Shown: piece by piece, positions 22,693 to 22,833 of the stretch
Layout: every line of letters starts with the position of its first letter
How positions within the stretch are numbered: position 1 is the first letter of the stretch
Assembly: GCA_964106645.2 (NCBI GenBank)
Contig: OZ067049.1
DNA: 64,000 bases
From: Podarcis pityusensis
Lineage: Eukaryota
Reading direction: 5' to 3' (one strand)
Position numbers and translations under genes: made by a program
The notes under the pieces: model-generated
Seen by the model: only the letters and a program-made list of their open reading frames with translations
Databases searched by the model: none
Told to the model about the DNA's origin: nothing

Positions 22693-22833
22693 CACAACAA
22701 GCCGCTCTACTCCTTTGAAGACAATGCCGACTATGTCTACGATGTCATGTGGTCACCAGTGCATCCCGCGCTCTTTGCCTGCGTGGATGGGATGGGCCGC
22801 TTGGATCTCTGGAACCTGAATAATGACACAGAG
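22693..22833 (+). CDS. DYNC1I1: Cytoplasmic dynein 1 intermediate chain 1, third-last coding exon (human exon 15 equivalent), WD40 region
   Basis: Polypyrimidine tract and AG at 22691-92, GT at 22834. 141 bp, phase 0/0, encoding [51 protein letters not shown] and SPVHP match DYNC1I1 rather than DYNC1I2 (NNKP, SPTHP). Confidence 0.97.

Follow-up and report, generated by a model that had tools for sequence, protein, structure and literature searches.

The 64,000-nucleotide stretch of DNA analysed here (the window) carries, at positions 22693-22833, an exon that is the orthologue of human DYNC1I1 eExon 15 (Birnbaum 2012). Based on our analyses, this exon and a conserved block in the intron on its 5' side quite probably act together as an enhancer of DLX5/6 in the limb ridge and the genital bud of the lizard, with the specific input coming from the intron and a supporting part played by the CpG-rich exon. 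In itself the finding matters little, given that the enhancer was already known and published, that its lizard counterpart had already been mapped in 2018, and that snakes keep the element.

The exon is 141 nt long and in phase 0 on the plus strand, and it encodes 47 residues without a stop between canonical splice sites (a pyrimidine tract and CAG on the 5' side, GTGAG on the 3' side). When the 47-residue peptide was searched against proteins, it was 100% identical to 113 of the best 120 of 2,621 matches, and the named full-length proteins among those 120 were DYNC1I1, in agreement with the gene named in the original prediction. The DYNC1I2 chains in the PDB differed from the peptide at 2-3 positions. 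A Pfam search returned no family for the peptide, which is too short a query, and the placement of exon 15 in the WD40 propeller is based on the matches to PDB chains and to the listed proteins rather than on Pfam. Because two DYNC1I1 exons remain on its 3' side within the window (34287-34412 and 57187-57298), the exon is third from last, as had been predicted. It was the 13th of 15 exon matches on C12 to a 625-aa DYNC1I1 isoform. One listed protein, P0043, exceeds this isoform by 20 aa, reflecting an alternative exon missing from it, and the gene presumably has a non-coding first exon that counts toward the number; from these three components we infer that the exon is number 15. The coding features of the window are as follows.

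22693..22833, plus strand: DYNC1I1 exon 15, third from last, 47 WD40 codons; the exonic part of eExon 15
34287..34412, plus strand: DYNC1I1 exon 16
57187..57298, plus strand: DYNC1I1 exon 17, coding part; the counterpart of eExon 17
61658..63755, minus strand: last three coding exons of SLC25A13, a synteny marker; middle exon at about 63416-63507, read by eye

The last three introns of DYNC1I1 measure 23.4, 11.5, and 22.8 kb (C12:28767334-28825184 in G000, the window's genome) versus about 1 kb each for the matching introns of DYNC1I2 (C1:119197953-119201576), which is in line with a regulatory load on the DLX5/6 side. The DYNC1I2 paralogue is a separate locus on C1, close to a second DLL_N gene. 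Across the window and its genome, the order of the locus is DYNC1I1, SLC25A13, SEM1, DLX6, and DLX5. The last exons of SLC25A13 lie on the minus strand and face DYNC1I1 tail to tail, which upholds the synteny claimed beforehand, and the 59-residue last exon of SLC25A13 matched Podarcis proteins at 100% identity and none of the other listed proteins at more than 92%, confirming that the DNA is that of a lizard. Podarcis is fully limbed. Relative to exon 15, a SEM1 exon lies at a distance of 235 kb (C12:29026126), DLX6 at 385 kb (C12:29.175-29.180 Mb), and DLX5 at 407 kb (C12:29.193-29.197 Mb), with DLX5 and DLX6 told apart by their DLL_N match, their orientation, and N-terminal motifs that we take to separate the two genes. 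The DLX5/6 promoters are CpG islands in this genome. Further SEM1/DSS1-like matches were found at C1:34115418-34115585 and C18:6970973-6971062, the first of which is possibly a retrocopy, as it spans profile positions 3-60 without a change of frame.

In the consulted parts of the original description of the human element (Birnbaum 2012, PMC3371700), a 608-bp human fragment drives expression in the ridge and the limb mesenchyme, and eExon 15 is marked as an enhancer in the limb of the mouse, where its contact with Dlx5/6 was assayed by 3C and FISH. The human sequence was active in the fin of fish and the limb of mice, and mouse limb chromatin at eExon 15 was without H3K4me3. The same sections report that the exon is needed for full enhancer activity and is weakly active alone in zebrafish; the exon by itself was never the whole enhancer. 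In the portions consulted of a SHFM1 paper from 2023, eExon 15 is listed as an enhancer of limb and genital tubercle, and the smallest SHFM1 deletions discussed there also take out eDlx#23 and eDlx#24 (PMC10616856). The original prediction had stated that deletion of exons 15 and 17 causes SHFM1; what stands is an association, as the smallest deletions discussed also remove these two further elements.

The lizard locus shares with the human and mouse eExon 15 its gene, exon position, peptide, and order relative to DLX5/6, as well as a conserved 5' intron and exon next to an unconserved 3' intron (PMC3371700, in part). It differs from them in its distance to DLX6/DLX5, about 385-407 kb rather than about 900 kb, and in being known from its sequence alone. 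The peptide, the exon position, and the synteny all bear out the earlier identification as the orthologue of the exon-15 limb enhancer. The element has already been mapped in another squamate, the tegu, a lizard of a different family, as DYNC1_I1_eExon15, CNE122261 (Roscito 2018, PMC6226452, Suppl. Table 9, consulted in part). Judging from its overlap with eExon 15 rather than from its sequence, CNE122261 would be the intronic block described here.

22540..22658, no strand assigned: conserved intronic core, lizard-teleost, probably the sequence-specific part of the enhancer; based on alignments to L035 and L036

This block was recovered in a metagenome scan of 39 loci, of which 17, chosen for having the largest number of exon-like matches, were aligned and 22 left out; it was present in two of the 17 (L035 and L036) and absent from 15, including the DYNC1I2-type locus L037. 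Both positive loci are DYNC1I1-type and teleost-like, sharing a C-to-A change with a mudskipper protein and not with bichir or lungfish, and exon 16 is absent from both. Between the lizard and these loci, 91 of 116 and 77 of 99 aligned columns of the block were identical (about 78%), values that are inflated because local alignments leave out gaps. The 5' intron alignments scored 104 and 97 versus 28 +/- 4 with a maximum of 43 for shuffled sequences (200 shuffles each), and the 3' intron had no match in the fish loci (scores of 29 and 19 versus shuffle values of 26 and 22), which is the same pattern as that published for eExon 15 between human and fish. Between L035 and L036, 122 of 128 positions of the block were identical versus 200 of 273 in the intron flanks and 14 of 19 at four-fold sites. 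Translated intron was also contained in 32 of the 120 listed proteins, comprising 29 read-throughs and three canid gene models. The 29 read-throughs, canid-named (one of them dingo) and unnamed, agreed with the translated lizard block at 19-22 of 23 positions, an indication that mammals carry this block too.

A 26-base core motif from the block had no matches in the genome-contig and viral-contig collections. The DYNC1I2 paralogue had no intron match, and a pre-duplication enhancer common to DYNC1I2/DLX1-2 was not found. The original prediction was thus right about the exon and too narrow about the enhancer, since it left out the 5' intron, where conservation begins about 150 bases before the coordinates that it gave. 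A second short block, at 22484-22500, reads HWTV in the lizard; two unnamed read-throughs share this reading and a third has WTV, and the element may have an extension here that is restricted to amniotes. An ATT microsatellite occupies 22888-22922, 55 bases past the donor of exon 15.

Within the block, five stretches were held in common by the lizard and both fish loci.

22559..22568, plus strand: CCTTTCATCT, putative TCF/LEF-like motif, identical in the window, L035, and L036
22576..22583, plus strand: GTTTTATG, putative posterior Hox/Cdx-like motif, identical in the window, L035, and L036
22593..22601, plus strand: TGAATGTGC, conserved, no factor label, identical in the window, L035, and L036
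22606..22616, plus strand: TTTTTAATTAG, putative homeodomain motif (Dlx/Msx-type TAATTA), identical in the window, L035, and L036
22622..22658, plus strand: CCAGACAG and GCGCC-N5-GTCT (22645-22658), putative Smad-element-like and BMP-composite-like motifs, in all three

The labels TCF/LEF, posterior Hox/Cdx, Dlx/Msx homeodomain, and Smad were assigned post hoc and are our own assumption. The hexamer CACCTT at 22540 is likewise common to the window, L035, and L036, and an in-frame AG at 22604-22605 stands directly 5' of TTTTTAATTAG. A GC-element followed by GTCT at 5-bp spacing has been described as a BMP composite in the consulted part of PMC4605309; the AGCGCC-N5-GTCT of the window, L035, and L036 has one mismatch, in the first base, to GGCGCC, and MAFFT places the GTCT differently. 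The GCGCC-N5-GTCT composite was the only such match in the 64-kb window. Loose sets of all four motif classes co-occurred at three places in the 64 kb, and therefore it is the conservation and not the motif content that constitutes the evidence for the block. None of the four scanned motif patterns was found inside exon 15. We also weighed, by eye, whether the GGCGCT stretch could be a CTCF site, and discarded the idea because the sequence fits what we take to be the CTCF motif badly.

Both the block and most of the exon are covered by a CpG island.

21877..22800, no strand assigned: orphan CpG island over core and exon, 924 bp, GC 0.554, CpG o/e 0.82

Orphan islands were defined as non-repeat stretches of at least 500 bp off an annotated start, with GC of at least 0.55 and CpG o/e of at least 0.65, and this was the only stretch of the window with such GC and o/e values (window-wide o/e 0.34). 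The island appears unique: among the 40 candidates scored out of 573, nothing else in the genome matched beyond a dispersed repeat at 21700-21876, on its upstream border. Neither fish locus has such an island (o/e of 0.35 and 0.39), so either the ancestor of all bony vertebrates lacked it or it was lost later. GC3 in exon 15 was 29/43 versus 171/358 in nine other DYNC1I1 exons (p=0.016). Part of this excess is not local, because the paralogous DYNC1I2 exon also runs high (22/43 versus 131/362 in its neighbours, p=0.07).

Put together as a mechanism, TCF (Wnt), posterior Hox, Dlx/Msx-type homeodomain, and BMP-Smad factors would bind the block at 22540-22658, and the CpG island would extend into the exon and raise its GC3. 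The island may further help the block to reach across about 385-407 kb to the DLX5/6 promoters, themselves rich in CpG; we propose this boosting step because orphan CpG islands have been reported to boost enhancer-promoter action (10.1101/2020.08.05.237768, consulted in part) and because the starts of the lizard DLX5/6 genes are CpG islands. The contribution of the exon itself would come from bases fixed by the protein or from its GC and CpG content, not from a hidden code at silent sites, and use in the genital bud would preserve the element in snakes.

Published scores for snakes bear on this last step. In the consulted parts of PMC6226452, CNE122261 at eExon 15 had a Z score of +0.37 for boa and python, the two snakes that the score covers, relative to a cut-off of -3, compared with -0.9 to -2.3 for four eExon 17 CNEs and -3.5 for one ZRS CNE. 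The expectation that the element would relax in limbless squamates was not borne out by this score, and the genital-tubercle class to which the element belongs tends to be kept. These Z scores say nothing on synonymous sites, because coding exons and a further 50 bp were masked (PMC6226452, in part). The same source, as far as consulted, reports that limb-genital enhancers tend to persist in snakes and puts the retention down to genital pleiotropy. The Tbx4 HLEB-type limb-genital enhancers that it discusses likewise combine a listed limb and genital activity with snake-retained sequence, but for HLEB the limb activity is lost in snakes, whereas for eExon 15 the retention is a matter of sequence. 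The names Dlx5, Dlx6, and DYNC1I1 do not appear in the main text of Roscito 2018 (PMC6226452).

We consider it unlikely that, as the original prediction had it, the synonymous positions of the exon form a limb-enhancer code that is constrained in limbed species and relaxes in snakes and legless lizards, even though the exon is needed for full activity, is weakly active alone in zebrafish (PMC3371700, in part), and has raised GC3. Four-fold sites in exon 15 were identical between lizard and fish at 7/19 (L035) and 7/18 (L036) positions, versus composition expectations of 0.36 and 0.38, with a 95% confidence interval for 7/19 of 16-62%, wide enough to fit weak or local synonymous constraint. The block was more conserved than these sites in both comparisons (91/116 versus 7/19, p=0.0005; 77/99 versus 7/18, p=0.0016), and between the fish loci it exceeded all synonymous sites (122/128 versus 30/41, p=0.0002), with four-fold sites there indistinguishable from intron flanks (14/19 versus 200/273, p=1.0) at two loci that are unsaturated. 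Two-fold sites lean the other way, since 14/22 agree with the orthologous fish loci and 8/21 with the DYNC1I2-type L037 (p=0.13), but comparison with DYNC1I2 gave no synonymous excess in exon 15 (16/38 versus 135/285 in nine other exons, p=0.61). Within the limits of these small samples (about 19 four-fold sites from two fish loci that are related to each other, compared lizard-fish and fish-fish rather than amniote-wide, gaps excluded), the silent sites appear no more constrained than neutral intron, in contrast to the intronic block. The enhancer grammar that had been claimed for the exon DNA is thus at odds with four-fold identity at the level of chance between lizard and fish and of the flanks between the fish loci, as well as with the lack of the four scanned motif patterns in the exon, the undiverged snake CNE, and genital pleiotropy. 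Validated eExons tend not toward synonymous constraint according to the consulted part of Birnbaum 2014 (PMC4207465), and our literature search found no published squamate synonymous-site test of DYNC1I1 exon 15. Synonymous constraint elements and exonic enhancers such as that of Hoxa2 (cited in PMC3371700 and PMC4745165, both consulted in part) likewise involve regulation overlapping a coding exon; unlike them, the eExon 15 locus was without detected synonymous constraint, and its conserved block is intronic. For SHFM1 genetics, point variants would be likelier to have an effect within the intronic block of about 120 bases upstream of exon 15 than at synonymous codons, and this region would usually be dropped by exome pipelines.

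A conserved element with no limb role in lizards, active instead in the genital bud or in some other tissue, or acting through its CpG island as an internal promoter, is somewhat less probable still. Its retention in snakes would be compatible with such a role, as would the HLEB and HoxD elements, which kept their sequence and lost limb activity (PMC6226452, in part), and the Dync1i1-Dlx5/6 loops that a source consulted in part places in mouse cochlea as well. Among the 5,635 limb-specific tegu ATAC peaks, a list that covers HDAC9 eExons 18 and 19, none lay over the mapped eExon 15 or 17 (PMC6226452, in part); this also counts against our own reading, although the list consists of limb-specific peaks only and the ridge is a small fraction of the limb bud. 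The human sequence, on the other hand, is active in fish fin and mouse limb without H3K4me3 in the latter (PMC3371700, in part), and the lizard block is identical at 19-22 of 23 translated positions to the read-throughs, including the dingo-named one. We give very little credence to a block kept for splicing or as an in-frame extension of exon 15, using an acceptor at 22605 and adding 29 residues, although the frame from AG 22604-22605 is open into the exon (87 nt, 22604-22692 region) and three canid gene models (P0042, P0054, and P0057) take the equivalent acceptor. The block carries 1-, 2-, and 4-base indels between lizard and fish, its distance to the exon is 87 in the lizard versus 230 and 228 in the fish loci, and the frame is shifted in L035, with stops in both fish frames. 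Moreover, 14 of the 120 listed proteins (two of them peafowl-named) start at an ATG whose apparent counterpart in the lizard is the out-of-frame one at 22661, and the mammal-type ATG frame ends after four codons in the lizard. An RNA structure or a known RNA family at the block found no support either, the RNAalifold covariation term being unfavourable (+4.34, from three sequences only) and the Rfam search giving no match near the gathering score.

Returning to the intronic enhancer assisted by its CpG-rich exon, we regard as possible but rather doubtful a bolder version in which Wnt, Hox, homeodomain, and BMP inputs all lie in the intron, the exon is a CpG-only helper, and the limb-only switch is a snake-lost group of elements, CNE122253-256, with the limb-genital core kept. 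For limb loss, the better test object would be this snake-diverged cluster between exons 15 and 17. In the consulted tables of PMC6226452, CNE122253-256 (tegu scaffold_5:29304126-29306768, between eExons 17 and 15) have Z scores of -12.1 to -13.9 with substitutions given as NA, and because of this entry they were probably deleted in snakes; one of the four overlaps mouse limb H3K27ac, ATAC, and Pitx1 ChIP peaks. From order and scale, the cluster probably falls within intron 16 of the window (34413-57186), at roughly 38000-44000, and candidate sites are two stretches that are rich in motifs and look unique, near 37980-38340 and 42340-43050. In the part consulted of a 2024 screen for convergently degenerated CNEs, DYNC1I1 appears in one row only, CNE18308, between SLC25A13 and DYNC1I1 (PMC11600591); as we read the table, whose column meanings are uncertain, it lies well beyond exon 15. 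PhALR.21, an accelerated limb region of the flightless Galapagos cormorant, is reported to lie in a Dync1i1 intron near exon 15 (10.1101/181826). A young 3.1-kb LINE-type retroelement occupies 39167-42306 of the window on the minus strand, with a 938-codon open stretch and a reverse transcriptase domain, and it is 98-99% identical to 9 copies and about 88% identical to many more (38 scored).
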